A stretch of DNA of 32,000 nucleotides, from contig NZ_RSDW01000001.1 in assembly GCF_003945235.1 (NCBI RefSeq), positions 3,420,001 through 3,452,000 of the forward strand, given 5' to 3'. This document shows positions 5,812 to 31,037 of the stretch, one piece after another. This stretch comes from Edaphobacter aggregans (GTDB taxonomy: Bacteria > Acidobacteriota > Terriglobia > Terriglobales > Acidobacteriaceae). A program made the translations under genes and the position numbers. Numbering within the stretch: position 1 is the first letter of the stretch; each line of letters begins with the position of its first letter. The notes beneath the pieces were generated by a model that saw only the letters and a list, made by a program, of their open reading frames with translations, had not been told where the DNA came from and did not search any database.

Positions 5812-6852
5812 CTAGGTTACCAGCGTGGATAATCGGCGTAGGCTAGCCATTACATCTTCCATACCAATCCCGAAGTCGATGAGACAAGCGATCTCATCCA
5901 CTTCGTGTTCGCTAAGGAACTCAGCTTGATGAGCACACTGATCAAGAGTTCCGATAAAACTCAATTCACTGTGTAGGTCGTTATTTACCTGGATGTTAAT
6001 CATTATTTCGCTTTCCCGCTCACTGATCTGAGAAAAGCCTTTGCTCTGCTTGGCCCCGAGGGAATGATCCTTTTGCATTCCGATATTCACTTTAAGATAT
6101 TTGGCCATAGCGGGCCGGGCGATGGTTTTTATCTCTTCAGCGTTTTCCCCAACAAACGTGTGAGCCATCAACGTGATATGACCACGACGGCCATGATGGG
6201 CTTGAATTGAGTCCCGGTAAATTTGCGCTTTGCGGGTGAACTCTTTGAGGTCATGTTTGAGTGCGAAGTTCGCCGTTAGAACATTGAATCCAAGCTTGCC
6301 GGCATTGAGGAAACTGTCATCCGATTGACCGGTTATCCAGACGGGTAGTTCCTTTTGAATAGGTGCCGGTAGAATCCCAACGTCGATCGTAACCCCCTCT
6401 CCATTTACCAGTGGTATCTTCTCGCCTCGCCAAAGTCTTTGGATTAGGGCAATCTTCTCGTACATGTCGTCATAGCGGTTCTTATATGTACCAGGCGAGA
6501 GCACAAAATCGTTTACGTGCCATCCCGAGGCAGCCGCAATGGCAACGCGGCCATCCGAAAGGTTGTCGATCATAGCCCATTCTTCGGCGACGCGCAAAGG
6601 GTTCTGCAATGGTAGGACGACGCTTCCAGCTCTGATGGAGAGATGTTTCGTAATCATTGCGAGTGCTGCGCCGGTAACAGAGGGGCTTCCATAAAGACCA
6701 CCAAACTGTTGAAAGTGTCTTTCTGGCGTCCACACGGCAGAAAAATTATGTTCATCCGCGAACTTGCTGGACTCTAATAACAGTTGATATTTGTGGTCTT
6801 GACGTTCTGAGGAATCCGCACTGAAAAAAAACAAGCTGATCTCTGGTGCCAT
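5812..6852 (-). CDS. Luciferase-like (LLM class) flavin-dependent monooxygenase, natural-product-type subfamily
   Basis: The N-terminus (MAPEISLFFFSADSS ... KYQLLLESSKFADEHNFSAVWTPERHF ... GSPSVTGAALAMITKHLSIRAGSVVLPLQNPLRVAEEW) is the pattern I associate with the MupA/secondary-metabolite LLM family. The start is placed at ATG 6852, the second Met of ORF 5812..6891. Confidence 0.75.
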   Translation of the reverse strand: MAPEISLFFFSADSSERQDHKYQLLLESSKFADEHNFSAVWTPERHFQQFGGLYGSPSVTGAALAMITKHLSIRAGSVVLPLQNPLRVAEEWAMIDNLSDGRVAIAAASGWHVNDFVLSPGTYKNRYDDMYEKIALIQRLWRGEKIPLVNGEGVTIDVGILPAPIQKELPVWITGQSDDSFLNAGKLGFNVLTANFALKHDLKEFTRKAQIYRDSIQAHHGRRGHITLMAHTFVGENAEEIKTIARPAMAKYLKVNIGMQKDHSLGAKQSKGFSQISERESEIMINIQVNNDLHSELSFIGTLDQCAHQAEFLSEHEVDEIACLIDFGIGMEDVMASLRRLSTLVT

Positions 6853-7417
6853 TTCTCGCCCCGCTATAGAAGAATTTAGTCCTATGTACAACCTATCGAT
6901 GCGTCGGCCAACTCAAAATGCGAGTCGGGCGCCAAAGTAGTGCATTGTTCGAGCTTCGTCTTATACTTTCAAATCCGTAGGGCCGTCCACAAACAAGGAA
7001 TACGCGACGCTTCTGTGAGCGTTAGAGCCTCGGTGTGACTTGCCGTTGCGTTGAACCTGCTATCTTCTTGTGCAAAGGTCGTGGGAGAGAGAGTACTAGA
7101 TACCATGACCAAGACACAACGAAGTTAGCAGAAAGAAAAATAGCGGGCAAGATTATTCATTCTATTGGGCAGGGTATTCGCGATAACGTGACTCCATCGC
7201 ATCGAGGGTCCGCAGAGCACTGGTTAAACCTGTCAGATGGCTTTCCAATCGGCTTGTAGTACGGGGCAGACAAAGCATGCGGCTGTCGGCGAAGCTACCG
7301 TCTGCCTAAAATTTAGGTAACCAATTTGTCTACATATGATTACAGTTAAAAATGGCACCAATCTGTAAACCAACGAATCACCAACTTATCGATAGGATAG
7401 GGTTTGCTCGTGAGAAC

Positions 7418-9883
7418 CTAAGGAATTGTCACTGTGATTTGGTTTGACGGGACGCTTTCTACACCGTTGTAATCAACGCTCTTTACAAGGTAGCTATAGG
7501 TGGAACCACTTGCGACGGCGCTGTCCACATAGGCAGTCTGCGCATCTGGCGAGGCGGTGATCAGTTGAAAAGACCCACTGCTTATCGACCGGTAGATGTT
7601 GTAACCTGCTACCGGGTCTGGCGAACTGCTGGGTGCATCCCAATTGAGGTAGACTTCATGCGCCGCCGCTGCCGTACCTATGCCGCTAAGAGCCACCACT
7701 GCCGTACCTCCGGTAGTCGAGTTGCTGCTAATCGTGATCTGCCCTGCAGCTCCTCCGGTTGCTGTTGGCTGGAATTGGACCTGCAGCGTGACCGTTTGGG
7801 TTGGATTCAGCGTCACCGGTAGGCTTCCACTGATGATGGTGAAACCAGATCCCGTGATCGCCGCTGCGCTTACTGTAACCGGTGAGGTTCCTGTCGAACT
7901 TAGCGTCACGGATTGCGTCGCTGCAGTGTTCACGGTCACGCTACCGAAGCTCAGACTGGTGACACTTACTGTCAGCTGCGGGTTCGCTGTAGAGGGCGGG
8001 GTGGGGGATGATCCGCCACTACAGGAGGGGACGCAGTCTGCCTGGAAGGAGGCGAGGGCATAGATGGTGGATTTTCTTTGATCAACCAGGATGCCTGGAT
8101 TACCGGTTGAATACAGGGAATCGGTTGCCGAGACAGAACTTCCGCTGGAGATATCTGTACAGGTGTAGGTGGTCCCGGTGACAAGAAGTTGTATGGTGTC
8201 GCCGTTCGCGGCAACAGGACAGTTTGAGGCGATGATGTAGTTGCCAGCACCGTTGGCCAGGGAATAGAGCAGGCCGTAGTCTCCCAGATAACATACGCCG
8301 TTGCCAGCCGTATTCATGCGCACGCACACACCGGTGGAGCCCTGCGCCGAAGAATAACCCACGAACTTAGCCTGCGCATACTGGTCATTGGAGAACGAGA
8401 TCCCGGTATAGGTCGCTAGTCCCTGTTGTCCGGAGACGGAGGGTGCAACCGTACCGCTGTTCTGTGCCAGAGATACATACCCTTGTCCATACGACGACGT
8501 GTTGGTCCAGTTTGTCGACAACGCTCCCGATCCACTGAACGTGTCGACTGCGGGATAAGGACTATTGGTATTACAGGAGGGGACGCAGTCTGCCTGGAAG
8601 GAGGCGAGGGCATAGACGGTGGATTTTCTTTGATCAACCAAGATGCCTGGATTACCGGTTGAATACAGGGAATCGGTTGCCGAGACAGAACTTCCGCTGG
8701 AGATATCTGTACAGGTGTAGGTGGTCCCGGTGACAAGAAGTTGTATGGTGTCGCCGTTCGCGGCAACAGGACAGTTTGAGGCGATGATGTAGTTGCCAGC
8801 ACCGTTGGCCAGGGAATAGAGCAGGCCGTAGTCTCCCAGATAACATACGCCGTTGCCAGCCGTATTCATGCGCACGCACACACCGGTGGAGCCCTGCGCC
8901 GAAGAATAACCCACGAACTTAGCCTGCGCATACTGGTCATTGGAGAACGAGATCCCGGTATAGGTCGCTAGTCCCTGTTGTCCGGAGACGGAGGGTGCAA
9001 CCGTACCGCTGTTCTGTGCCAGAGATACATACCCTTGTCCATACGACGACGTGTTGGTCCAGTTTGTCGACAACGCTCCCGATCCACTGAACGTGTCGAC
9101 TGCGGGATAAGGACTATTGGTATTACAGGAGGGGACGCAGTCTGCCTGGAAGGAGGCGAGGGCATAGACGGTGGATTTTCTTTGATCAACCAAGATGCCT
9201 GGATTACCGGTTGAATACAGGGAATCGGTTGCCGAGACAGAACTTCCGCTGGAGATATCTGTACAGGTGTAGGTGGTCCCGGTGACAAGAAGTTGTATGG
9301 TGTCGCCGTTCGCGGCAACAGGACAGTTTGAGGCGATGATGTAGTTGCCAGCACCGTTGGCCAGGGAATAGAGCAGGCCGTAGTCTCCCAGATAACATAC
9401 GCCGTTGCCAGCCGTATTCATGCGCACGCACACACCGGTGGAGCCCTGCGCCGAAGAATAACCCACGAACTTAGCCTGCGCATACTGGTCATTGGAGAAC
9501 GAGATCCCGGTATAGGTCGCTAATCCCTGTTGTCCGGAGACGGAGGGTGCAACCGTGCCGCCGCCCTGCGCCAGAGGAACATATCCTTGTCCATACGACG
9601 ACGTGTTGGTCCAGTTTGCCGACAACGCTCCCGATCCGCTGAACGTGTCCACCGCGGGATAAGGGGCTACACTCGAGGCCGATGCGAATCTGGAACCCAG
9701 GGATAGCGACAGACAGAAAGCCATCGCAAGAGCAAGGGCACCCCACCATTTGCGCAGTTGGGGAGTCTTTGCAGCAGATTGGATGCGAAGTCCATTCGGT
9801 TGCTGAACCTCAGCATTATCTGAGCTGCCAGTGATTTCTACAATGTAGTCGGAGGACGAAGAAATAGCGTAGTTATGGAACAC
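7418..9883 (-). CDS. Secreted repeat protein: three near-identical ~184-aa Cys-containing modules (possibly lectin/jelly-roll-like), one Ig-like (choice-of-anchor-D/ASH-type) domain, C-terminal FN3 domain
   Basis: ORF 7418..9907. A signal-peptide-like segment (RKWWGALALAMAFCLSLSLGSRFASA) is followed by 3 x (PYPAVDTFSGSGALS.NWTNTSSYGQGYV ... FQADCVPSC). Then come an Ig-like beta-sandwich pattern (LSFGSVTVNTAATQSVTLSSTGTSPVTV ... LQVQFQPTATGGAAGQITISSNS) and an FN3 pattern (YLNWDAPSSSPDPVAGYNIYRS ... YSYLVKSVDYNGVES). The start is ambiguous among TTG 9907, ATG 9889 and GTG 9883. GTG 9883 has the best spacing to the SD AAGAGGTGAT. Confidence 0.85.
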   Translation of the reverse strand: MFHNYAISSSSDYIVEITGSSDNAEVQQPNGLRIQSAAKTPQLRKWWGALALAMAFCLSLSLGSRFASASSVAPYPAVDTFSGSGALSANWTNTSSYGQGYVPLAQGGGTVAPSVSGQQGLATYTGISFSNDQYAQAKFVGYSSAQGSTGVCVRMNTAGNGVCYLGDYGLLYSLANGAGNYIIASNCPVAANGDTIQLLVTGTTYTCTDISSGSSVSATDSLYSTGNPGILVDQRKSTVYALASFQADCVPSCNTNSPYPAVDTFSGSGALSTNWTNTSSYGQGYVSLAQNSGTVAPSVSGQQGLATYTGISFSNDQYAQAKFVGYSSAQGSTGVCVRMNTAGNGVCYLGDYGLLYSLANGAGNYIIASNCPVAANGDTIQLLVTGTTYTCTDISSGSSVSATDSLYSTGNPGILVDQRKSTVYALASFQADCVPSCNTNSPYPAVDTFSGSGALSTNWTNTSSYGQGYVSLAQNSGTVAPSVSGQQGLATYTGISFSNDQYAQAKFVGYSSAQGSTGVCVRMNTAGNGVCYLGDYGLLYSLANGAGNYIIASNCPVAANGDTIQLLVTGTTYTCTDISSGSSVSATDSLYSTGNPGILVDQRKSTIYALASFQADCVPSCSGGSSPTPPSTANPQLTVSVTSLSFGSVTVNTAATQSVTLSSTGTSPVTVSAAAITGSGFTIISGSLPVTLNPTQTVTLQVQFQPTATGGAAGQITISSNSTTGGTAVVALSGIGTAAAAHEVYLNWDAPSSSPDPVAGYNIYRSISSGSFQLITASPDAQTAYVDSAVASGSTYSYLVKSVDYNGVESVPSNQITVTIP
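8021..9676 (-). repeat. In-frame tandem triplication, 3 x 552 bp, near-identical at DNA level
   Basis: The units are 8021-8572, 8573-9124 and 9125-9676. By my reading, units 1 and 2 differ at two positions only (8065/8617 and 8089/8641). Units 2 and 3 are identical over 8573-8970 = 9125-9522 and then diverge. The identical spurious ORFs in the track (8100..8327 = 8652..8879 = 9204..9431; 8416..8802 = 8968..9354) corroborate this. Confidence 0.97.
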
Positions 9884-10074
9884 GAACATCACCTCTTCAA
9901 CGTGCAAAACTGCATGGTTTAAGAGGCAGAACGAAAAGGAAAAGAGAAAACGCTAGTCTACGTCTCGTATGACTGCACACCTACCGATTCGGAGGGATAT
10001 GGGTGCAGTGGGATTTTTCTGTCTTACCTGGCAACTACCATGACGCTGCTCAGGTCGCCGATTCTCATTCCCAA
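9881..10074 (-). promoter_or_regulatory. Conserved leader/upstream region, copy A (paralogous to 23861..24053)
   Basis: Read on the minus strand, it aligns block by block with 23861..24053. Shared blocks are TTGGGAATGA, GGCGAC, TGAGCAGC, AGTTGCCAGGTAA, TACGAGAC, a pyrimidine tract, TCTGCCTCTTA, CCATGCA, TTTTGCACGTT and AAGAGGTGATGTTCGTGT. Confidence 0.7.
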
Positions 10075-10577
10075 ATTTTCATACACATCAAAATATCAAA
10101 ATGATCTGCACACAGACCAAGACGGCATTGGAAACGCGGGAAAGCTTTTACACCCATTCCTAACATGTCCGGATCGACATCCATGAATGGGGTCGCAATC
10201 GCACTAATCGGTCGCTAATTGAACTAACTGTTGGTTTCTGAAATACTGCCCCGTTTATATCAAAGATGTTTCCAGCAAGCAAACATCTTCGGCCAATGCC
10301 GCTCTGCGCAGTTACACCTTTGTGCGCGATGCAGCACTCGTCGGATGTTTGGAATTTGCTTTTGCTGCTTGCAACAAATTGAGTGCATATGAGTTATAGG
10401 TTGTAGAGCTGTCACGTTTTACTTTTTCTGTAACTCAGGCGGAGCTTAATCCCCGGTACCTTCATCTCTCTGGTGACTCCCTAACCTGCGTGATCACACA
10501 AAAATCATGCAAGAGCGAAGTACATGTATGCGATGAGTGGTTGAAGCGGCGAGCGCGCACAAAATCAAACATTCCTG

Positions 10578-21561: not shown

Positions 21562-22968
21562 CTATGCTTTAAGACCATACCTTTGAATCTTATAAAGTAG
21601 CGTTCGGTAGCTGATGTTCAGGACCTTGGCGGCTCTTCTTCGATTCCATCCCGAAGTAGACAATGCATCTTCGAGCATACGGATTTCTGCCTGATTCTTG
21701 ACTCCATTGACCACGTCTCTCATGTTGGCAGAAGCAGGTGGTTTCTTCTCTACTATAGGTTCCACAGGGACTACGGTATTGACTCGCGTCTTGGTCCGCA
21801 GGTCGTTGTATGCGGATTCCTCGTCCTGGAGGACAAGTGTGCGGGTGACAAAGTTACGCAACTCGCGAAGATTTCCAGGCCAGTGGTATTCCTGAGCTGC
21901 TTCCATAATTCGACTGGAGAAGGTAGAGGGTTGTTCAGGCCGGGACGCACCTCTGCGTATCAACTCTCGCATCAACAATGGGATCTCTTCACGGCGTTCG
22001 CGTAGCGGAGGAACGGTAATGGTTAGGGTGTTTAGACGATAGTAAAGATCTTCGCGGAAACGCTTTTCAGCCAGCGCATCCAACATGTTGATATTGGTGG
22101 CCGCGAGAACGCGTACATCAACTTGGGTGCTAACGCGCGCTCCAAGACGGCAGAAGGAGCCATCCTGCAGTACGTGAAGCAATTTGGCCTGCATCTGTGG
22201 GCTCATTTCACCAATTTCGTCCAGTAGCAGAGTTCCTTTATTGGCGAGTTCAAACTTGCCCGGCTTGGATTTCATTGCGCCGGTAAAAGCTCCCGCCTCG
22301 TAGCCAAATAGTTCACTTTCGAGAAGTTCTGTGGGTAGAGCGGCACAATTGACGTTGAGGAAACTTCTGTCCGCACTTGAGTGATACTTATGCAGCAGCA
22401 TGGCCACTATTTCCTTACCTACGCCGCTCTCACCCAGAATGAGTACTGGAATGTCGACGGGAGCGAGAAGGCGGACATCTTTGTAAAGTTGCATCATCGT
22501 GGGTGACGCTGCCAGGAAAAAGCGGTTATTGTCCAATTCTTCCAAATGGTTGGGAAGGTTCGTTGGGTTGTTTGCTTGCGGGGTTCCTACTGCTGTTGGC
22601 TCGACCTTGGGCCAGGAAGTCAGCTTCTCCAGGTCTTTCTGCAGCAGAGGCTTCGTCAGCACAGTTTTAATGCTCCATTTCGCGGCGTATTTCTCCCAGG
22701 ATGTGTCTCCAATTTCTGAGAGGATGCACAATTTCTCGCTGCTTAGATGTTGCAGAAGATCTGAGGCGAAGAGGCCATCCCGCGATTTACTCTTAACTGC
22801 GTCGAACAAGAGAAAATCTGCGACCACTCCTGTGTGCAATAACTGGAGAGCCTCGCGAGAGGAAGAAACGCACATGGATTTATGACCATTGGATCCCAGA
22901 GAAGTGTGAATCATGTTGCAGACATCGATGTCGTCGCTAATTGCTAAAATCTGCAATGCGTGCGTCAT
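21562..22968 (-). CDS. Sigma-54-dependent transcriptional activator (NtrC-family response regulator: REC + AAA+ + Fis-type HTH)
   Basis: Walker A GESGVGKE, the sigma-54 contact loop GAFTGA, a C-terminal HTH (RRRAAKVLNISYRTLLYKIQRYGL), and an N-terminal receiver with D12/D13, D56, S84 and K106 equivalents. The start is placed at ATG 22968 (MTHALQILAISDD) with GAGGTG upstream. The ORF track extends to 23109. Confidence 0.9.
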   Translation of the reverse strand: MTHALQILAISDDIDVCNMIHTSLGSNGHKSMCVSSSREALQLLHTGVVADFLLFDAVKSKSRDGLFASDLLQHLSSEKLCILSEIGDTSWEKYAAKWSIKTVLTKPLLQKDLEKLTSWPKVEPTAVGTPQANNPTNLPNHLEELDNNRFFLAASPTMMQLYKDVRLLAPVDIPVLILGESGVGKEIVAMLLHKYHSSADRSFLNVNCAALPTELLESELFGYEAGAFTGAMKSKPGKFELANKGTLLLDEIGEMSPQMQAKLLHVLQDGSFCRLGARVSTQVDVRVLAATNINMLDALAEKRFREDLYYRLNTLTITVPPLRERREEIPLLMRELIRRGASRPEQPSTFSSRIMEAAQEYHWPGNLRELRNFVTRTLVLQDEESAYNDLRTKTRVNTVVPVEPIVEKKPPASANMRDVVNGVKNQAEIRMLEDALSTSGWNRRRAAKVLNISYRTLLYKIQRYGLKA

Positions 22969-23860
22969 GTAACACACCTCAAGGCGGAATCGAATAGGTG
23001 GACCAGATGCTACAGAGAGCGAACTATACCAGCCGGGTCGTTTCCAACCTAGCATTTGTCTAACAGATCGATTATTTGTAAAGGGCCCGGAGAACCTTAT
23101 GATAAACACGACGCATCATCGTCGTTTGGCAGATGGCAAGTGCAAAAAATTGCAAAAAGAAAATCAATCCATATATTTACTTCAGGTCGTAATGATGGGT
23201 TGAGTTACCCGCTTTGGATTGCGCCAAGCATTAATGCCCACGAACGATCCCTGAAGTGCAGCGAATTTAACGCTATCCCCGGAAAGTGTCAACAAAAAAT
23301 TGCACACATGGGATGCAGTTAGTCTGCATGGATCGATTTAGCAGCCCTAAGTTATATTGAGTCACAGGATAGCTAATGACCGAGAGAGTTATTAATTTTT
23401 CACTGCGCGACGAAGATAAAAAGATAGTCATGGTTACTAACTGAAGTGTCGGTAACCTTTAAGTACCCTGTTCATTTTGAAGGCATCGAGCAATCGGACG
23501 GCACCATGAAATATCGCGTTGGTGGTCAAGAGGTTGAGGTTTATCGGTGTGTTCGAAAGCGATTTAAGTAGTTGCTGGCGTCCGGCGACAGACATCAAAC
23601 TTTTGCCCAAGCTCGATCTCGATCGTGACGTTTCGGTTGCTGCGGAGTGCCTTGATTGCTGGGAGTACCTCTGCTATAAACATAGCTTGCACGTCAGAAA
23701 CCAACAATAAGGTCTATTGGTAACCAATTAGTGTGATTGTGTCCCCCTAAATACGAATGTCAATCTGAAGTCGTGAGGGGTGAAACATTCCGCTCTTCCC
23801 ATTGACGCGGCTTATCAAAAAGCCGTAAATCGCTGCACAAACTTTGATCTTGTACGAACG

Positions 23861-24053
23861 TTGGGAATGAAAGGCGACTTGAGCAGCTCTCATGAAAGTT
23901 GCCAGGTAAAGACAAATCGTTCCCCTACATTGAGCGCCAATGCTGATTGATGGCACGCATTTCGTACGAGACATGTAGCGCTTCCCTTTTTTCCTTTTTG
24001 CTCTGCCTCTTATCCATGCACTTTTTGCACGTTTCAAGAGGTGATGTTCGTGT
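23861..24053 (+). promoter_or_regulatory. Conserved leader/upstream region, copy B (paralogous to minus-strand 10074..9881)
   Basis: It has the same ordered identical blocks as copy A, ending in the identical 18-mer AAGAGGTGATGTTCGTGT (24036-24053 = rc of 9880-9897). A non-conserved 51-nt segment of equal length in both copies separates the conserved blocks. Confidence 0.7.
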
Positions 24054-26134
24054 CGCCCAAATATGTTATTCCTGTCTCGTCGGGCCGCGTTGTTTCAGCG
24101 CTTTCTCGCACTTCTTATGCTGTCTCTCGGAAGCTGACCAGGCTCCGAATCTGGCTAGGCACACGATCTCGCGAGTGCGATAGTGTATGGATCGCTTTTG
24201 GGATGGCTTGCTTCCTGGTGTTGGCAATCTCCGGTTGTGGGTCGGGGGTCAATGGAAATCTGTCGGTGAGCACCCCGAGTCTGAGTTTTGGAAATGTCAC
24301 GGTCAACTCCGCTACAACACAGGTGTTGATACTGACATCGACGGGCACCTCTCCGGTAACGGTGACCGCAGCGTCAGTTACGGGAGCGGGCTTCTCTATC
24401 CTAGGTGGTAGCTTCCCGTTGATGTTGAATCCGGCGCAGACGGTGACGCTGCAGATACAGTTTCAGCCAACCTCAGCGGGAGCAGCAGCGGGACAACTCA
24501 CGATCAACACCAACTCAACTGATGGCGGCGGCACAGCCGTCGTAGCACTCAGCGGTATGGGCATGGCGGCTACCTCTGCTCCGCCAGCGGCTCCGCAATT
24601 GGCGGTGAGCACCTCGAATCTAAGTTTTGGCAATGTGGCTGTAAACTCGTCAATGACGCAACCGGTGACGCTGACCTCGACGGGCACTTCGGCGGTAACG
24701 GTGAACTCAGCGTCAATTACAGGCGCGGGCTTCTCTATTGTTGGAGGAAGCTTCCCAGTAACGTTGAATCCGACGCAATCAGTGACGCTGCAGGTACAGT
24801 TCCTACCAAGCTCAGGAGGAGCGGCTGGAGGACAACTCACGATCAGCAGTAACTCTGCTATCAGTGGCGCGATCATCGTGGCGCTCAGCGGTATGGGTGC
24901 GGCGGCGACCGGCTCTGCTCCGCCAACTGATCCGCAGCTAACAGTGAGCGCCTCGAACTTAAGTTTCGGCAGTGTGACGGTGAGCACGTCGACAACGCAG
25001 TCGGTAACGCTGGCCTCGACGGGCACTTCGCCGGTAACAGTGAACTCGGCGTCGATTACAGGCGCGGGCTTCTCTATCGTTGGGGGAAGCTTCCCGTTGA
25101 CGTTGAATCCGACGCAGACAGTGACGCTGCAGGTACAGTTTCAGCCGGCATCAGCAGGAGCAGTTGCAGGACAACTCGCGATCAGCAGTAACTCCGTCAG
25201 TGGGGGCGCCATCGCGGTGGCCCTTACCGGTACAGGGGTCACGGTCGCGGATCCCCAATTGACGGTGAGTATCGCCGGCCTGAGTTTTGGAAACGTGACG
25301 GTGAACTCCTCGATGATGCAGTCGGTGACACTGAAGTCGACAGGCACTTCGCCTGTAACGGTGAACTCGGTATCGATTGGAGGTGCGGGTTTTACTATCC
25401 TTGCGGGGAGCTTCCCTGTAGCGTTGAATCCGGGTCAGTCAGTGACGCTGCAGGTGCAGTTCTTACCAGCCTCAGCTGGAGCGGCTGCGGGACAGCTCAC
25501 GATCAACAGCAACTCGACCAGCGGGAACGCGGCGATCGTGACTTTGAACGGTACGGGCGTGACTGCGAATCCGCAGTTGACGGTGAGTGTTGCCAGCCTG
25601 GAATTTGGTAGCGTGACGTTAAATACTTCGACAACGCAGTCGGTAACGTTGACATCGACAGGCACTTCTGCGGTGACGGTAAACTCCCTGTCGATCAGCG
25701 GAGGAGGCTTCTCTATCTTGGGCGGTAGTTTCCCGCTAACTCTAAATCCAAATCAGACTGCGACGCTGCAGATACAGTTTTTGCCGACCTCGGCGGGAGC
25801 AGTTGCGGGACAGCTCACGATCAACAGCAACTCGGTAGGCGGAAGCGTAGCAACTGTAGCTCTCAGTGGGACGGGAGCGGCGAGCGCGCATTCGGTCGAC
25901 CTTAGTTGGGACGCGCCAAGTAGTTCACCCGATCCAGTGGTGGGTTATAACATATATCGGTCGACAAGCAGTAGTGGACCTTTCCAATTGATTAACTCGT
26001 CTCCAGACGCACAAACCACTTATGTGGATAGCACGGTTATCAGTGGCAGTACCTACAGTTACTACGTAGAGAGTGTCGACGCGAGCGGCGTAGAAAGCAC
26101 TCAATCGAACGAGATTTCGGTGAAGATCCCCTAG
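24050..26134 (+). CDS. Lipoprotein with five tandem Ig-like (choice-of-anchor-D/ASH-type) repeats and a C-terminal FN3 domain
   Basis: ORF 24041..26134. Lipobox LVLAISGC. Five ~106-113-aa repeats (PQLTVS..LSFG.VTVN...TQSVTLTSTGTSPVTVNSASITGAGFSI.GGSFP.TLNP.Q.VTLQVQF.P.SAGA.AGQLTI.SNS) are followed by FN3 (DLSWDAPSSSPDPVVGYNIYRS ... YSYYVESVDASGVES). The start is ambiguous among GTG 24041, ATG 24044 and GTG 24050. Confidence 0.88.
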   Translation: MSPKYVIPVSSGRVVSALSRTSYAVSRKLTRLRIWLGTRSRECDSVWIAFGMACFLVLAISGCGSGVNGNLSVSTPSLSFGNVTVNSATTQVLILTSTGTSPVTVTAASVTGAGFSILGGSFPLMLNPAQTVTLQIQFQPTSAGAAAGQLTINTNSTDGGGTAVVALSGMGMAATSAPPAAPQLAVSTSNLSFGNVAVNSSMTQPVTLTSTGTSAVTVNSASITGAGFSIVGGSFPVTLNPTQSVTLQVQFLPSSGGAAGGQLTISSNSAISGAIIVALSGMGAAATGSAPPTDPQLTVSASNLSFGSVTVSTSTTQSVTLASTGTSPVTVNSASITGAGFSIVGGSFPLTLNPTQTVTLQVQFQPASAGAVAGQLAISSNSVSGGAIAVALTGTGVTVADPQLTVSIAGLSFGNVTVNSSMMQSVTLKSTGTSPVTVNSVSIGGAGFTILAGSFPVALNPGQSVTLQVQFLPASAGAAAGQLTINSNSTSGNAAIVTLNGTGVTANPQLTVSVASLEFGSVTLNTSTTQSVTLTSTGTSAVTVNSLSISGGGFSILGGSFPLTLNPNQTATLQIQFLPTSAGAVAGQLTINSNSVGGSVATVALSGTGAASAHSVDLSWDAPSSSPDPVVGYNIYRSTSSSGPFQLINSSPDAQTTYVDSTVISGSTYSYYVESVDASGVESTQSNEISVKIP
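24257..25888 (+). repeat. Five diverged tandem coding repeats (Ig-like domain units of 318-339 bp)
   Basis: Unit starts, read from the translation, are 24257, 24593, 24932, 25253 and 25571. The units are clearly related at protein level but diverged at DNA level, unlike the triplication at 8021-9676. Confidence 0.85.
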
Positions 26135-26442
26135 TGTCCCTGACGGGCTGAGTCAAAAACGTTGGCTTAGGCATGAGTTCTCCTTTAAGATGAGGCCGCC
26201 CCTCTTCGAGCGAAATTTCTGCCCTAGGACATGAGACTTCTCCATTTAGCGCCTTGGCGCATTTCTTTCTCGACATTTTGCCGCTGAACCAGCCGGAAAG
26301 TTGTGCAATTTATTGTTCTTGTATGCATGACCCTGCAACCCCAGGATTGCGTGCAGAAGATCGGGCTGTCACGCTCGCTTTAATTTCCCGGAAAATCAAC
26401 AGTAAATACTGGCATTGGGCTTTTTACCGGCTAGCTGGACTA

Positions 26443-26458
26443 TGGCCATCATCGTGCA
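26443..26458 (+). promoter_or_regulatory. Candidate sigma-54 (-24/-12) promoter upstream of the EPS operon
   Basis: TGGCCATCATCGTGCA has the GG and GC dinucleotides at the canonical 10-nt spacing (consensus TGGCAC-N5-TTGCW). It lies ~140 nt upstream of ATG 26598. This is a pattern match only. Confidence 0.35.
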
Positions 26459-26597
26459 AGCCAGCGTCTTTGCATATCCACAAAAGCGTTCGGAGCCTGA
26501 GCGCAGGATTAAAACAAGGGCTGTAGCCCACAGGGCGAAGCTATGTCTTTGTAACCGAGTATCAGAAATATTGCTGTCAATGGAAAGGCGAAGCTAA

Positions 26598-27221
26598 ATG
26601 CTGACCCCTCAGAGCATCGACATAGAACAAGACACCTCGGGCTGGTGGGCTCTCTACACCCGCCATCAGCACGAGAAGGCAGTGGCGGAGATGCTGTCAG
26701 CAAAGGGCTTTGAGGTATTTCTGCCGCTTTATGAATCAATACGGCGCTGGAAAGACAGAAGTAAGATGCTTGCGCTACCGCTGTTCCCCTGCTATGTCTT
26801 CGTTCGGGGAGGACTCAATCGTCGATTGCAGGTCGTGTCAACTCCCGGAATTCATATGATTCTGTCTCGTGGCGAACGCATCGCGATCATTCCGGAAGCC
26901 GAAATTCAAGCGATTCAAAGAGCGGTCGAAGGGCCCTTTCGCGTGGAACCACATCCTTTCTTGAAGTGTGGTGAACTGGTTCGTGTCATACGGGGCTCCC
27001 TTGAAGGCGTCGAAGGGGTCTTGGTCCGCAAGAAGAATCTGTATCGTCTGGTTCTATCCGTGGACATGATGGCGCAATCCGTGGCCGTAGAGATTGACGC
27101 CACTGACGTGGAGCCGGTGATGGCGCGAGGCGCAGCCGTGTTCGTGATCAACCAAGTTACGGGGCCCGTGAGATTTGGTGAATCGTCACTTTGTAGTGGA
27201 CGACAAATAACCAGTATTTGA
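26598..27221 (+). CDS. NusG-paralog transcription antiterminator (NGN + KOW; UpxY/RfaH-like operon-specific type)
   Basis: NGN pattern: WWALYTRHQHEKAVAEMLSAKGFEVFLPLY ... PLFPCYVFVRG. KOW-like pattern: GELVRVIRGSLEGVEGVLVRKKNLYRLVLSV. It is the first gene of a polysaccharide export cluster. Confidence 0.8.
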   Translation: MLTPQSIDIEQDTSGWWALYTRHQHEKAVAEMLSAKGFEVFLPLYESIRRWKDRSKMLALPLFPCYVFVRGGLNRRLQVVSTPGIHMILSRGERIAIIPEAEIQAIQRAVEGPFRVEPHPFLKCGELVRVIRGSLEGVEGVLVRKKNLYRLVLSVDMMAQSVAVEIDATDVEPVMARGAAVFVINQVTGPVRFGESSLCSGRQITSI

Positions 27222-27456
27222 GAAGAGTCGATCAGACTTGGATGAGATCGTCTCCAAAATGCTTCAACCAAGTCGGACAGCGTGAATCAGCATGTACCCT
27301 TATCACTTCAGTCTCGTATCGCAGACTCAGGTTCTGACTCAGATCTCTGATAAAGAGAGTCAGGTTGGAGGACAAGAGAGATTCGCCAGACGCCAAGGCA
27401 AACCTCTCCAGGGATCCTCGTCGGAAGTCATTTTAAAAAGCAATACAGATCACTCA

Positions 27457-28092
27457 ATGGGATTAGGATTCCTTTTGATTGTTCTTTCCGGTTCTTTATT
27501 AGCTCAAGTGCCAGCCGCAGGTCAGGCTAGTAACAAACTCCCGGTAGCCACCATTGCGGCTTCTCCAGTGCGACCTCTGGCACCATCGGACAGCAAACCA
27601 CACGATGATAGCTTCCTCATAGGTAATGACGACGTTCTGGCGATTAATGTCTGGAAAGAGCCTGACCTCACTCGGTCGATTCAAGTGCGATCGGACGGAA
27701 AGATTTCGTTACCTCTGGTAGGAGAAGTTCAAGCAACAGGACGGACTCCTGTGCAACTCGAACAGGATATAGCTACCAAACTCCGGATCTACATTACCAA
27801 ACCAGAAGTTACGGTAATGGTGGAAAAGATTAACAGCGATAAGTTTAATATCCTTGGACAGGTAGCAAAGCCAGGATCATACTCGCTTGCGCTCGCGCCA
27901 ACAGTTATGGACGCTATCGCAATTGCTGGTGGCCCCGGAGATTTCGCTAAGCAGAAAGCCATTTATATTCTTCGACAGAATCCCGATGGTGGTCAGTCGC
28001 GTATCGCCTTCAATTACAGGGACTTTATCAAAGGCAAAAACTTACATCAGAACATCAAACTCGAACCGCACGACACCGTCGTCGTGCCTTGA
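27457..28092 (+). CDS. Polysaccharide export protein (OPX/Wza family, short form: Poly_export + SLBB)
   Basis: IGNDDVLAINVWKEPDLTRSIQVRSDGKISLPLVGEVQATGRTPVQLEQDIATKL ... FNILGQVAKPGSYSL ... TVMDAIAIAGG matches the OPX PES/SLBB pattern. The start is placed at ATG 27457 (MGLGFLLIVLSGSLLAQ, signal-like). The ORF track starts at 27292. Confidence 0.82.
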   Translation: MGLGFLLIVLSGSLLAQVPAAGQASNKLPVATIAASPVRPLAPSDSKPHDDSFLIGNDDVLAINVWKEPDLTRSIQVRSDGKISLPLVGEVQATGRTPVQLEQDIATKLRIYITKPEVTVMVEKINSDKFNILGQVAKPGSYSLALAPTVMDAIAIAGGPGDFAKQKAIYILRQNPDGGQSRIAFNYRDFIKGKNLHQNIKLEPHDTVVVP

Positions 28093-28266
28093 AGGGCTGC
28101 TTGGAATTCCCCGTAATACTCTCAGCGTTGCCCTCGGTCGCCGGTCTGGCCTAGACCATAAAATCGGTTGTGGCGTTCTCGATCCACAAGGGTACTCCGT
28201 TCTTTTCATACCCAACCACCAGTTCATCTCTGCCATTTATCAGTACACGCACCGCTGGAGACAATC

Positions 28267-29874
28267 ATGGAAGAGATCTCCGAGGAACAAAATTCCGAAC
28301 GAACTGACATCGAACACTACCTGAACATAATCCGTCGCCGCCACATCCATTTTTTTGTACCACTATTTCTAGGGTGGCTCGTGGTTTGGGGGGCCAGTTG
28401 GGTTTTACCGGTGAGCTACAAATCGGGCACGCTCATCTTGGTAGAGCAGCCCACTATGCCTAAAAACTACGTCGTTCCGAATGTCAACGACGATTTACAG
28501 AATCGCCTGCAGAGCATTACGCAACAAATTCTTAGTCGGACGCGCCTTCTTCTGATCATTGACAAGTTGCACCTCTATGGTGACAGCCATCGTCAGCTTA
28601 CGTCAGATGAAAAAGTTGAGCGAATGCGCAAAGACATTGACATCGAACTCGTACATAATTCTCAGGGCGACCAGATCACGGCATTCAAGATCAACTATTC
28701 GGCGCGTGACCCTCGTGTTGCCCAACGTGTAACAAGCGAACTGACTAACCTCTTTATTAGCGAAAATCTAAAAGTGCGCCAACAACTATCTGAAGACACC
28801 ACTAAGTTTATCGGTAGCCAGTTGGAAAATGCACGTTCAAACCTAGCAGAACAGGAAGCTAAAATTAGAGAGTTTAAAGGGGAACATGTGGGAGAGTTGC
28901 CTTCCCAAGAAACAAGCAACCTACAAATTCTAAGCGGGCTCCAGGCGCAGCTACAGAACGCTCAGGATACTCTTAACACTGCGAAACAGCAGCGAGTTTA
29001 CCTCCAGACGTTGATCGAGCAATACCGGGCTCTTCATACGTCTTCCCGGACTGCCGACGGTGCCCCGACAGGTTTGTCAGCAATTGACCAAGAACTCGAT
29101 CGATTAAAGTCGAAGCTAGCAGACCTTAGCACTCGCTACACCGATCAATACCCGGAAGTCGAGAATCTAAAAGATGAAATATCCAAGACCGAAAAGGTGA
29201 GGAGCGCGCTCGTTGCTGAGTTGAAGAAGAAAAACAATAGCGGGGGGCAGGTCGACAGTACTGCTACACGCGACGGAGCGGATCCATCACAAAACTCGTC
29301 GCTGTTGCAGTTGCAAGGCCAACTGCAAGCCAATCAAGCCGAGATCACGAATCGTGAGCAAGCAATCGCCGGGTTACAAGCGAGAGTCAACGGCTACCAG
29401 GATCGGTTGAATTCTGCGCCTACACGTGAGCAGCAGCTAGCAGATCTGACACGTGGTTATGACCAAACTAAGGCTAATTACGACGACCTGCTAAAAAAGC
29501 AGAACGAATCAGAGATGGCAACCAGCATGGAATATATGCAGCAGGGAGAACGCTTCAGCATGATTGATCCTCCGAGCTTGCCACTGAAACCGGATTTCCC
29601 CAATCGTCTCAAATTCTGTGGAATCGGGCTGGGCGTCGGTCTCGCGTTGGGCCTCCTTGTGGTAGGTGGACTCGAAGCTATGGATCATCGCCTGCACAGC
29701 GAAAAGGAAATTAAAGCCCTACTTCCGATGGCGATCTTATCTGAGATCCCTGAGATCGTAAGCCCGTCGGATGAACGAAGCAGCAAAAGGAAGATGGTAC
29801 TGGGATGGGCGATGGGGGCACTAATCATAACCACCATCTTGGCAGGCTCTGCCATCAGTTACCTGCGCGGTTAG
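28267..29874 (+). CDS. Polysaccharide chain-length determinant / co-polymerase (PCP, GumC/Wzz-like, no kinase domain)
   Basis: N-terminal TM (FFVPLFLGWLVVWGASWVL), a Wzz-like motif (YKSGTLILVEQ), a long coiled-coil periplasmic region and a C-terminal TM (GIGLGVGLALGLLVVGGL). The start is at ATG 28267 with GGAGA 6 nt upstream. Confidence 0.85.
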   Translation: MEEISEEQNSERTDIEHYLNIIRRRHIHFFVPLFLGWLVVWGASWVLPVSYKSGTLILVEQPTMPKNYVVPNVNDDLQNRLQSITQQILSRTRLLLIIDKLHLYGDSHRQLTSDEKVERMRKDIDIELVHNSQGDQITAFKINYSARDPRVAQRVTSELTNLFISENLKVRQQLSEDTTKFIGSQLENARSNLAEQEAKIREFKGEHVGELPSQETSNLQILSGLQAQLQNAQDTLNTAKQQRVYLQTLIEQYRALHTSSRTADGAPTGLSAIDQELDRLKSKLADLSTRYTDQYPEVENLKDEISKTEKVRSALVAELKKKNNSGGQVDSTATRDGADPSQNSSLLQLQGQLQANQAEITNREQAIAGLQARVNGYQDRLNSAPTREQQLADLTRGYDQTKANYDDLLKKQNESEMATSMEYMQQGERFSMIDPPSLPLKPDFPNRLKFCGIGLGVGLALGLLVVGGLEAMDHRLHSEKEIKALLPMAILSEIPEIVSPSDERSSKRKMVLGWAMGALIITTILAGSAISYLRG

Positions 29875-30035
29875 GTTTATTTTCTAAATGTACAAAGCGT
29901 TCTTCCATCTCACGATCGAATCCTTTGACCTTACATCCAATCCCACCCATCGGAAACGTGCTCAATGACTTGGATGCCGCCCTGTGAAGACCTATTGCAG
30001 GCGATGGGTAGCGTTAGCCGTTGAAGCGAGAAAAC

Positions 30036-31037
30036 ATGAGTCGCATATTTGAGGCGTTACAAAGATCGGAAGCCGAACGCTCTGAGATTGATTTGACAGT
30101 GGTGTCAGAAGCAACTGAAGTGCTGCGGCGCGTCGAACGTGAATCAGCATTGAAATGGGATACGCCAGGTTCGTCTGAACAGATTGATGCAACGAAAAAC
30201 TCTGACCGTGAGATGTTGTTCGGCCAATCAGGGAAGTCGCCGGTAGGGACGACACCTGGAACTCATATAGGCGCCAAGCTTTGGCAGGTTGAAGAGCGGC
30301 TGGATCCGTTTGGCCAATTCCAATCCCTGGAGATTTCGCTTACTTCTCAAAGTCGACTGGTAAGTCTGACGGACAGCGGGAGTCCGGCGGCGGAAGCTCT
30401 CCGCCTTCTAGGGGTGCGGTTACGACATCTCCGGCGCGATCGGACGCTTAGGAAAGTGCTGATTACGAGCACAATTCCTCAAGAGGGCAAGAGCATGATT
30501 GCTGCTAACCTAGCTTGCACTCTCGCTCTAAGGACTCAACAAAGAATTTTAGTGTTGGAGGGAGATTTGCGGCGTCCGTCTTTATCGCGGATGTTCGGGC
30601 TCGGAAGGAATCCGGGCCTCTGTGAATGGCTGCGAGGCGAGCGCAGCTTGACGGAGAGTATCTACCATCTCGAAGGCCAGGATCTTTGGATATTGCCCGC
30701 AGGCAGTGCTCCCAGCAATGCACTGGAACTACTGCAATCGGGAAAATTATCTGAGCTGATGGATCAATTAACCGTGTTGTTTGATTGGATCATCATCGAT
30801 TCTCCTCCCGTACTGCCTTTGGCTGACACAAGCGTCTGGATGCGGTTGGCAGACGGAATTCTTCTAATTACGCGTCAAGGAACCACAGAAAGGCGACAAT
30901 TAAAGAAAGGACTCGAAGCGCTCGAGCCTAGAAAGTTGATCGGTGCGCTAGTGAATAGTTCAAAGAACGCGGCAACCAGTGACTACTACTACAGTCCTTC
31001 AACGGCTTCACGGTTGAACGACGCTTCGGCAGAATAA
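30036..31037 (+). CDS. Bacterial tyrosine (BY) autokinase, CpsD/ExoP-C type P-loop ATPase
   Basis: N-terminus MSRIFEALQRSE, Walker A IPQEGKSMIAANLA, Walker A' VLEGDLRRP, Walker B IIIDSPPVLPLADT, and a C-terminal Tyr cluster SDYYYS. ATG 30036 is preferred over the track's TTG 30021. Confidence 0.85.
   Translation: MSRIFEALQRSEAERSEIDLTVVSEATEVLRRVERESALKWDTPGSSEQIDATKNSDREMLFGQSGKSPVGTTPGTHIGAKLWQVEERLDPFGQFQSLEISLTSQSRLVSLTDSGSPAAEALRLLGVRLRHLRRDRTLRKVLITSTIPQEGKSMIAANLACTLALRTQQRILVLEGDLRRPSLSRMFGLGRNPGLCEWLRGERSLTESIYHLEGQDLWILPAGSAPSNALELLQSGKLSELMDQLTVLFDWIIIDSPPVLPLADTSVWMRLADGILLITRQGTTERRQLKKGLEALEPRKLIGALVNSSKNAATSDYYYSPSTASRLNDASAE

Follow-up and report, generated by a model that had tools for sequence, protein, structure and literature searches.

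The described systems closest to the element reported here are riboswitches, the antitermination leaders of polysaccharide loci and the region upstream of PEP-CTERM protein genes. The element is a long conserved leader that stands in two copies (copy 1 and copy 2) directly before two paralogous genes (gene 1 and gene 2) for lipoproteins with immunoglobulin-like (Ig-like) domains in Edaphobacter aggregans. Both copies lie in a stretch of 32,000 nt, referred to below as the window (RefSeq assembly GCF_003945235.1, contig NZ_RSDW01000001.1, positions 3,420,001 to 3,452,000, forward strand). Acidobacteriaceae, the family of this bacterium, are among the most abundant bacteria in soil; to our knowledge, almost nothing is known of their gene regulation, and very few RNA motifs have been described for the phylum. 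The Acidobacteria motifs of Rfam, Acido-1 and Acido-Lenti-1, are neither of them cis-regulatory.

Riboswitches, especially those of the c-di-GMP-I/II classes, resemble the leader in their position in the 5′ untranslated region (UTR), where it is predicted to lie, in a multi-stem junction with covarying stems and in conserved junction or loop nucleotides. Also shared are a downstream helix, predicted for the leader, between an anti-Shine-Dalgarno and a Shine-Dalgarno sequence (anti-SD and SD) and the presence of several copies per genome before envelope or matrix genes; those of the c-di-GMP-I/II riboswitches precede genes for surface proteins, adhesins and exopolysaccharides. Unlike them, the leader matches no Rfam riboswitch, has no ligand assignment and shows no demonstrable mutually exclusive pairing of aptamer and platform. 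With a predicted length of ~365 nt it is much larger than a typical riboswitch; it carries a second conserved domain at its 5′ side and is found in one bacterial family only.

The antitermination leaders (JUMPStart/ops-RfaH, the UpxY-dependent 5′ UTRs of Bacteroides, LoaP, and the EAR RNA of Bacillus epsC, an antitermination leader of a polysaccharide locus; Weinberg 2010, PMC2864571) are likewise long, conserved and located at exopolysaccharide (EPS) loci. Copy 1 has, in addition, a gene for an UpxY-family NusG paralog just downstream, a synteny kept in distant Acidobacteria. The leader differs from JUMPStart/ops in having no RF01707 match and no ops-like GGCGGTAGnnTG; its GGCGAC/GGCGGTC is followed by CTGAGC/CTGATC and not by TAG. 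It also precedes single structural genes rather than a long biosynthetic operon, and most of its copies are not beside a NusG paralog.

The PEP-CTERM upstream region consists of a DNA-level activator site, for PrsR, and a −24/−12 (sigma-54) promoter, occurs in Proteobacteria only and lies ~71 nt from the start codon (Haft et al. 2006, PMC1569441). It is similar to the leader in that large conserved intergenic regions precede single-gene, EPS-associated surface-protein genes, and its setting (a gene for a sigma-54 activator and a TPR gene nearby, EPS genes of the XrtA type) recurs at the leader locus. The leader has, in contrast, no −24/−12 element, a sigma-70-type promoter predicted ~365 nt upstream and covarying RNA helices, and it precedes genes for lipoproteins without a PEP-CTERM tail.

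We consider it probable, with moderate confidence, that the element is a transcribed, structured leader of ~365 nt, specific to Acidobacteriaceae, which gates translation initiation of a family of paralogous surface lipoproteins. The earlier note on this DNA, made from the sequence alone, had recognised in it no known riboswitch or leader, and Rfam 15 agrees, giving no leader match in the window at the gathering score. At E ≤ 10, both copies and five other leader loci gave no relevant match, only chance ones to long non-coding RNAs and insertion sequences. Since literature searches also returned nothing on this leader or on the regulation of choice-of-anchor-D genes, we rate it as a candidate new motif among structured cis-regulatory mRNA leaders and riboswitch candidates.

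BLASTN reproduced the alignment on which the earlier note was built, of 23861-24053 (+) with 10074-9881 (−), extending it to 9880 (73.0% identity over 204 columns, E 2e-18), and MAFFT placed the same blocks in the same order in both copies. A repeat search of the window recovered this likeness independently, as the inverted pairs I2, I4 and I16. The 18-mer AAGAGGTGATGTTCGTGT, which had been claimed as an identity at both starts beyond chance, occurs exactly twice, at 24036-24053 (+) and 9880-9897 (−), and was matched in none of 100 dinucleotide shuffles with 2 mismatches allowed. The weakly conserved middle segment, described as 51 nt in both copies, is in fact 55 nt long in one and 54 nt in the other. 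Weaker likeness upstream is indeed present, although it extends not for ~40 nt but for ~210 nt beyond the noted segment, to ~23650 (+) and ~10285 (−); this extension includes block I3 (53 nt, 79% identity, 23694-23746 vs 10189-10241) and ends in a promoter-like element common to both copies. At the other end, ~40 nt of the 5′ coding region are ~70% identical (I2). The whole unit of ~400 nt comprises a putative promoter, a 5′ domain, a 125-nt three-stem junction, a pyrimidine tract and the anti-SD/SD pair followed by GUG.

The similarity could also be a functionless leftover of segmental duplication or gene conversion, as the two paralogs share an Ig domain (72% nucleotide identity over 263 nt, I1) and a C-terminal domain. 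Copy 1 is, however, 80% identical over 423 nt to leader L001b (loci are cited by L numbers), and copy 2 is 78% identical over 215 nt to L002 (BLASTN). Because each copy is nearer to an ortholog than to its paralog (73%), a recent duplication or gene conversion is unlikely, and the recent segmental duplication that the earlier note had raised against a function was not found. Moreover, in conservation the leader equals the best coding domain, the coding sequence cannot for the most part be aligned, and the element persists across genera and in at least 30 metagenomic variants with structure-preserving changes. The chance that it is such a neutral leftover is practically negligible.

The leader was collected from loci of homologous proteins, by a pattern scan of species-representative genomes and by a scan of soil metagenomes. 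All four loci found through homologous proteins carry it directly before an Ig gene, and L001 carries it before each of two tandem Ig genes. The genome scan added nine instances, in Tunturiibacter psychrotolerans, T. gelidiferens, strain KBS 89 and metagenome-assembled genomes (MAGs) of Acidobacteriaceae, together with five matches in unrelated phyla, which is about the number expected by chance; the metagenome scan added 33 further loci. With a profile of the first 16 sequences, nhmmer found full-length matches (~420 nt, lowest E 1e-108) in every acidobacterial locus and in no chance locus. The total is ~39 distinct full or partial copies from Tunturiibacter, Edaphobacter-like and other Acidobacteriaceae and soil metagenomes; the presence of the element in relatives, which had been proposed as a check, is thereby established. 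Every leader with an assessable downstream open reading frame (ORF) precedes a homologue of Ig1/Ig2, the choice-of-anchor-D Ig-like proteins, and two copies each are present in the window, L001, L012, L034 and L047.

The downstream half of the noted claim, a structured 5′ UTR, found support in a domain of 125 nt with three stems. Its closing helix P1 has 8-10 bp. It is followed by P1a (GGGAAUG/CGUUCCC) and, across a conserved internal loop rich in purines (AAUGARAA..GGCG and AAGACAAAA), by P2, which has 10 bp and a single bulged A (ACYUG-A-GCAGC/GUUGCCAGGU). P3, (AC)UGCAY...RUGCA(GU), has an inner CCC/GGG helix and the conserved apical loop YUSCGARUY. Compensatory changes in these stems were counted in two alignments, A4 (MAFFT, 22 distinct junction domains) and A6 (covariance-model-based, 28 distinct matches of the model), and compared with controls in which the 3′ partners were slid by 1-3 columns; the structure was derived from the same sequences as were used for the counts. 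In A4, 88.2% of the cells were paired (32-41% when slid), 15 pairs had changed on both sides (6-11), 45 cells were double changes (10-18) and the covariation score was 0.327 (0.05-0.11). A6 gave 89.4% paired cells and 54 double-change cells. Over both alignments, the slid controls ranged from 27 to 45% paired, from 6 to 23 double-change cells and from 0.04 to 0.11 in covariation score, against 0.30-0.33 observed, and 0 of 500 shuffles matched the observed covariation values.

Individual pairs illustrate these counts: at pair 9:132 of P1, C-G and U-A are each found in 10 sequences, and pair 36:66 of P2 is A-U in 13, G-C in 6 and G-U in 2. RNAalifold predicted the base of P2 and P3 unaided and, for a set including a short subtype without P3, nine P2 pairs, 7 of them compensatory; in an unbiased comparison of every column with every other in the full-length alignment, P2 and P1 came among the top stacked helices. 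The covariance model R1, which was built on A4, had 34 matches (28 distinct), all at leader positions, with E from 1e-16 to 3e-35, and none in nine chance loci or elsewhere in the window. Selection at the RNA level would imply that the leader is transcribed. An earlier model of P2, GGCGAC/GUUGCC, gave way to ACCUG-A-GCAGC/GUUGCCAGGU, the pairing favoured by RNAalifold and by the covariation counts.

The apical loop of P3 (9990-10010 (−) in the window, and UUUCGAAUC in L030-type copies among the homologues) resembles the tRNA T-loop UUCGAAU, and the P3 arm abuts the 3′ strand of the closing helix, as in tRNA; Rfam gave no tRNA-like match for the leader. In the short subtype (L003, L007, L012 6825-7165, L023, L032, L051), P3 is entirely absent, and the promoter-proximal block, P1a/P2 with the compensatory UCCG-A-GCAG/CUGC-CGGA and the SD hairpin are retained. 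These leaders precede very large Ig proteins of 1000-1765 aa.

It might be argued that the conserved AUG in GGGAAUGA begins a regulatory upstream ORF (uORF) encoding a leader peptide, since this AUG is present in both window copies and a 3-nt indel keeps the frame for the first 7-8 codons. However, 4 of 26 homologues lack the AUG and show AAUAG or AACGA there. Neither the frame nor the length (10-27 codons) nor the peptide sequence is the same from copy to copy, other indels are not multiples of three, and the spacing between GGGA and AUG is 1 nt. We therefore rejected the uORF, which is extremely unlikely.

Upstream of the junction lies the 5′ domain. No block of the unit is more conserved than GUAACCAAUUAGUGUGAUUG in this domain, which is (near-)invariant in 16-37 homologues. 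The stems of the hairpin in the 5′ domain vary by subtype and the 14-nt loop AUGUCAAUCUGRA is kept; in copy 1, this hairpin (23743-23780) has the conserved apical loop AUGUCAAUCUGAAG, and a second hairpin is present at 23807-23826. Two tertiary contacts of the domain were considered and rejected. A kissing interaction or pseudoknot of the 5′ block ACCAAUUAG with the P3 loop CGAAUUGG looks good in copy 2, L001b and L041 (CCGAUU/AAUCGG vs CCAAUU/AAUUGG), yet the mean energy was −2.97 kcal/mol for cognate and −3.14 kcal/mol for non-cognate pairs (permutation p 0.76). A pseudoknot of GAUUG with the hairpin loop CAAUC is, judged by eye, uncompensated in A-type leaders and in L005.

A promoter shared by the two genes had also been postulated. 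A sigma-70-like consensus common to both copies (TTGnTT-N17-TGnTATAAA) was found, not inside the noted segment but ~190 nt upstream of it, so these 190 nt would all belong to the leader. Of 35 distinct leaders, ~22 have the motif TTGnnn-17/18-TGnTATAAA at the same aligned position, where conservation ends on the 5′ side; the motif was absent from the consensus scan because that scan requires T at position 6 of the −10 hexamer. We infer a transcription start site (TSS) near 23687 in copy 1 and near 10247 in copy 2, and the predicted distance from there to the GUG is ~365 nt.

Could the conservation reflect DNA-level signals only, that is, a promoter, operators or activating sites for the adjacent sigma-54 enhancer-binding protein (bEBP), with the RNA structure being incidental? 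In the window and in three of the four homologue loci (L002, L003 and L005), an adjacent gene in divergent orientation encodes a bEBP, and L001 has a bEBP gene at the edge of the locus. The EPS genes belong to the XrtA/PEP-CTERM type, a TPR gene is located upstream of copy 2, and an intergenic activator site with a −24/−12 promoter has been described before single-gene surface-protein operons (Haft et al. 2006, PMC1569441); furthermore, no RNA pairing is proven for the block of highest conservation (GTAACCAATTAGTGTGATTG in copy 1). On the other hand, no −24(GG)/−12(GC) has a conserved location, a well-conserved sigma-70-type promoter motif precedes the conserved region, and compensatory changes in P1, P2 and P3 are unexpected for protein-binding DNA. 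The lipoproteins end in ...VKIP* and ...VTIP*, without a PEP-CTERM tail, the score of the bEBP (278) is below the PrsR cutoff (503), and bEBP genes are not within the fetched flanks of most copies. We therefore regard a purely DNA-level role as improbable.

Searches for a sigma-54 promoter in the leader gave no candidate that held. The pattern TGGCAC-N5-TTGCW with ≤2 mismatches had 18 matches window-wide against 18.1 expected, none of them conserved between the copies, and a TGG...TGC overlapping the promoter block was rejected, as its GG is not conserved and its spacing varies. In copy 1 only, TGGCACGCATTTCGTA at 23951-23966 (+) has a perfect −24 half and a poor −12 half inside the atypical P3; it is not in copy 2 or the homologues and is probably fortuitous.

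The ORF list begins gene 1 at GTG 24041; the true start is most likely the second GUG, at 24050 in gene 1 and 9883-9881 (minus strand) in gene 2. L050 and its relatives, which form one subtype, have an insertion of 1 nt that disrupts a frame begun at the first GTG/ATG and leaves one begun at the second intact, and gene callers begin the 97%-identical protein P0001 at MSPKYVIP. With this start, the 18-mer would consist of the extended SD AAGAGGUGAU, a 4-nt spacer and the start codon. The first ~8 codons of both lipoproteins are conserved (M-S/F-x-K/N-Y-A/V-I). In the L036 subtype, the nucleotides are retained and the frame differs (VSSNILFL vs VSSKYAIL), which hints that the first ~25 coding nucleotides may be constrained at the RNA level.

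In the expression platform, a C/U-rich tract comes first, then the anti-SD UCUGCCUCU, then a small hairpin that varies, and last the SD. RNAalifold gave the consensus helix GCCUCU/AGAGGU for 27 sequences, and the full leader is predicted to form the anti-SD:SD pairing with a probability of 0.82-0.89 in copy 1 and 0.95-1.0 in copy 2, the SD hairpin being present in the centroid fold of the former and the minimum free energy fold of the latter. When 39 whole leaders were folded by partition function, the SD Gs of 37 had a pairing probability of ~1; their partner is the proximal anti-SD in about two-thirds of cases and otherwise, presumably, a second CCUCU-like stretch in the pyrimidine tract. 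Matching changes lengthen the SD helix in L001a (CCUCUGG/CCAGAGG) and L056 (CCUCUG/CAGAGG). By thermodynamic prediction, the ribosome-binding site would thus be paired, and this SD-sequestering hairpin, together with the three-stem domain and its compensatory changes across 22-28 distinct homologues, is what the claim of a structured 5′ UTR now stands on.

A hairpin of this kind might by itself be an RNA thermometer or a constitutive translational damper, the upstream domains affecting only stability or folding. Nearly all copies are predicted to pair the SD, the helix has only 5-7 bp and is rich in A/U inside, and the hosts include cold-adapted tundra isolates (Tunturiibacter). Nevertheless, neither ROSE nor fourU nor any other thermometer of Rfam matched, and a thermometer needs far less than a junction of 125 nt in which stems covary and unpaired nucleotides are conserved, which makes this explanation very unlikely.

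In the mechanism that we propose instead, transcription would start at the conserved sigma-70-type promoter ~365 nt before the GUG, and the RNA would fold into the 5′ domain and the 125-nt three-way junction of P1, the long P1a/P2 arm and P3. Beyond the pyrimidine tract, the anti-SD GCCUCU would pair with the very strong SD AAGAGGUGAU, and the ribosome-binding site would be occluded by default. The junction would serve as the sensor, and a bound small molecule, a protein or temperature would decide on the release of the SD; both this direction of switching and the nature of the signal are what we infer. Each paralogous choice-of-anchor-D lipoprotein gene would have its own leader copy, and several surface-protein genes of the EPS locus would therefore be under one post-transcriptional signal in each genome.

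A more specific version, in which the junction is the aptamer of an undescribed riboswitch class that senses a second messenger or an envelope/EPS metabolite and releases the sequestered ribosome-binding site of the Ig-like lipoproteins, is attractive because of the conserved unpaired junction nucleotides, the multi-copy regulon and the surface/matrix targets, as with c-di-GMP riboswitches; we nevertheless hold it to be doubtful. If it is true, the ligand would reveal the signal for surface and matrix remodelling in Acidobacteriaceae, and the leader would offer an entry point to the control of the cell surface and matrix in abundant, poorly studied soil bacteria. One candidate anti-sequestor, pairing of J2/3 AGGUAAGACAAAAA with UUUUUGCUCUGCCU, forms 12 of 14 pairs in copy 1; it was rejected, as its mean z is −0.23 relative to shuffled purine-rich sequence.

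Several results weigh against translational gating by a switching leader. No alternative (anti-sequestor) pairing of the junction with the platform could be demonstrated. The anti-SD/SD helix is invariant and shows no covariation, so covariation cannot prove it. Much of the covariation in the junction divides two subtypes, A and B, and hence reflects fewer independent events than the cell counts suggest; P3 is, in addition, degenerate in copy 1. Both collection scans demanded TCTGCCTCT and GAGGTGATG, the invariance of which in L007-L053 is therefore partly by construction; for these blocks only L001-L005 are independent, and two of them deviate (TTTGCCTCT and TCTTCCTCG). The folding energy of the whole leader is unremarkable (z = −1.7 and −0.5). 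In the 5′ domain, hand-drawn pairs are 66% paired, compared with 30-42% in slid controls, a weak support for its helices, and RNAalifold returned no consensus structure there. The sigma-70-like promoter is predicted from a match to the consensus. Finally, the junction domain was not found in the distant homologues L054-L057 by the covariance model or nhmmer, and only the SD region of L056 was matched.

The latter finding suggests that the junction domain is confined to the Tunturiibacter/Edaphobacter part of Acidobacteriaceae. The regions upstream of the genes in L054-L057 are long as well; L056 and L057 keep the anti-SD/SD arrangement, and look-alikes of the 5′ block were seen by eye upstream of L054, L056 and L057. 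Parts of the leader may thus be older than the junction domain.

A different role, in transcription elongation, is suggested by the neighbourhood of copy 1. The leader could be a site of processive antitermination or Rho attenuation that acts through the UpxY-family NusG paralog, with the pyrimidine-rich 3′ part, in which C exceeds G, as a Rho loading site unless an antiterminator or ribosome intervenes. The paralog scores above the NCBIfam UpxY cutoff (122 vs 100 bits), and the window, L001 and the distant L055 and L056 all have the genes for the Ig protein, the NusG paralog and Wza in this order. The leader is very long and untranslated, and the 72 nt before the SD contain, in 35 leaders, 27% C, 14% G and 42% U, a composition that also fits a Rho loading site. 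Inside copy 2, moreover, a terminator-like hairpin, GGUCUG-UGUG-CAGAUC followed by the U-run UUUUGAUAUUUUG, lies between the 5′ domain and P1 (10119-10102 (−)).

This hairpin is not kept in copy 1 or the other leaders, and a conserved intrinsic terminator was rejected for that reason. Against elongation control also speak the absence of a NusG paralog from the fetched flanks of most copies (including copy 2, L002, L003 and L005), the lack of a JUMPstart or EAR match in Rfam and of an ops-like GGCGGTAG, and the different conserved leader that the NusG paralog has of its own. Furthermore, the helix predicted to sequester the SD at the end of the Ig-gene leader speaks for initiation as the controlled step. 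Elongation control is therefore unlikely, although the two modes are not mutually exclusive; if the target is a protein or antiterminator, the leader would give a first access to the regulon of a UpxY-like factor from Acidobacteria.

The element is now well delimited, with a working covariance model and ~40 sequence variants, and strains of Tunturiibacter and Edaphobacter in culture would allow its role to be tested directly; as long as it has neither ligand nor partner, the element is one more orphan motif. The coordinates of its parts and of the neighbouring genes are listed in Table 1.

Table 1. Positions in the window of the parts of both leader copies and of the genes around them
Feature	Position	Strand	Description
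Copy 1 promoter-like element	23652-23680	+	−35 TTGATT 23652-23657, 17-nt spacer, extended −10 TGcTATAAA 23672-23680; read from sequence
Copy 1 5′ domain	23687-23848	+	block GTAACCAATTAGTGTGATTG 23720-23739; hairpin CCCC 23743-23747 / GGGG 23777-23780
Copy 1 junction domain	23847-23973	+	covariance model R1 match, 89.8 bits, E 1e-23
Copy 1 P1	23849-23858 with 23961-23970	+	CUUGUACGAA/UUCGUACGAG
Copy 1 P1a	23863-23869 with 23918-23924	+	GGGAAUG with CGUUCCC
Copy 1 P2	23877-23887 with 23898-23907	+	ACUUG-A-GCAGC with GUUGCCAGGU
Copy 1 P3	~23925-23959	+	degenerate, two A.C mismatches
Copy 1 expression platform	23974-24049	+	C/U-rich tract 23982-23999, anti-SD UCUGCCUCUU 24002-24011
Copy 1 platform, 3′ part	24017-24049	+	hairpin UGCA 24017-24020/UGCA 24026-24029, SD AAGAGGUGAU 24036-24045, spacer GUUC
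Gene 1	24050-26134	+	choice-of-anchor-D/ASH Ig-like lipoprotein; five repeats and C-terminal FN3-like domain; GUG 24050
Copy 2 promoter-like element	10254-10282	−	−35 TTGCTT 10282-10277, 17-nt spacer, TGaTATAAA 10262-10254
Copy 2 5′ domain	10090-10247	−	block GCGACCGATTAGTGCGATTG; hairpin CCCAUUC/GGAAUGG with conserved loop GAUGUCGAUCCGGA
Copy 2 junction domain	9961-10089	−	top covariance model match overall, 128.6 bits, E 3e-35
Copy 2 helices	within 9961-10089	−	P1 GUAUGA/UCAUAC, P1a, P2 ACCUG-A-GCAGC/GUUGCCAGGU
Copy 2 P3	within 9961-10089	−	ACUGCAC...GUGCAGU, inner CCC/GGG
Copy 2 expression platform	9884-9960	−	pyrimidine tract, anti-SD UCUGCCUCUU, small hairpin, SD AAGAGGUGAU 9897-9888
Gene 2	7418-9883	−	paralogous lipoprotein; one choice-of-anchor-D domain, same C-terminal FN3-like domain; GUG 9883-9881
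Sigma-54 bEBP gene	21562-23109		divergent from gene 1
UpxY-family NusG paralog gene	26598-27221		460 nt downstream of gene 1; NCBIfam 122 bits vs cutoff 100

Pfam and NCBIfam (NF012200) place both gene products among the choice-of-anchor-D/ASH Ig-like proteins, that of gene 1 with 311 bits. In both lipoproteins (24050-24215; 9883-9720 (−)), an unusually long extension of ~55 residues precedes the signal-peptide h-region and the lipobox, which is LAISGC in the protein of gene 1. Gene 2 contains three tandem repeats of 552 nt (D2, 8020-9423), 99% identical, each of which encodes a 184-aa module; this near-identity implies a very recent expansion or ongoing homogenisation, unlike the old divergence of the leaders.

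Beyond gene 1 lies an EPS export cluster, in which the UpxY-like NusG paralog is followed by Wza, an XrtA-type chain-length determinant and a tyrosine autokinase. The order of Ig-like lipoprotein, UpxY-like NusG paralog and Wza (Poly_export) genes (21562-31037 in the window) is also that of L001, L055 (a Sulfotelmatobacter-like MAG) and L056, and a sigma-54 bEBP and a DAO-family oxidoreductase recur beside the Ig genes of L001-L005. The ~330 nt before the NusG paralog gene are strongly conserved between the two closely related sequences compared, the window (26290-26597) and L001 (7960-8279), and include long stretches of identity, among them AAAGTTGTGCAATTTATTGTT, ACTATGGCCATCATCGTGCAA and GCTGTAGCCCACAGGGCGAAGCTATG. 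This region looks like a second long leader, unrelated to that of the Ig genes, at the head of the EPS export operon.

Just upstream of a luciferase-like monooxygenase gene (5812-6891 (−)), TGGCGCCCGACTCGCA at 6919-6934 (−) is a fair match to a sigma-54 −24/−12 promoter. It could be a target of the nearby bEBP; the window-wide count of such matches equals that expected by chance. The nearest protein matches of the window are from Edaphobacter and Acidobacteriaceae, and the window is (near-)identical to a 158.7-kb JGI soil metagenome contig (L027/L053).

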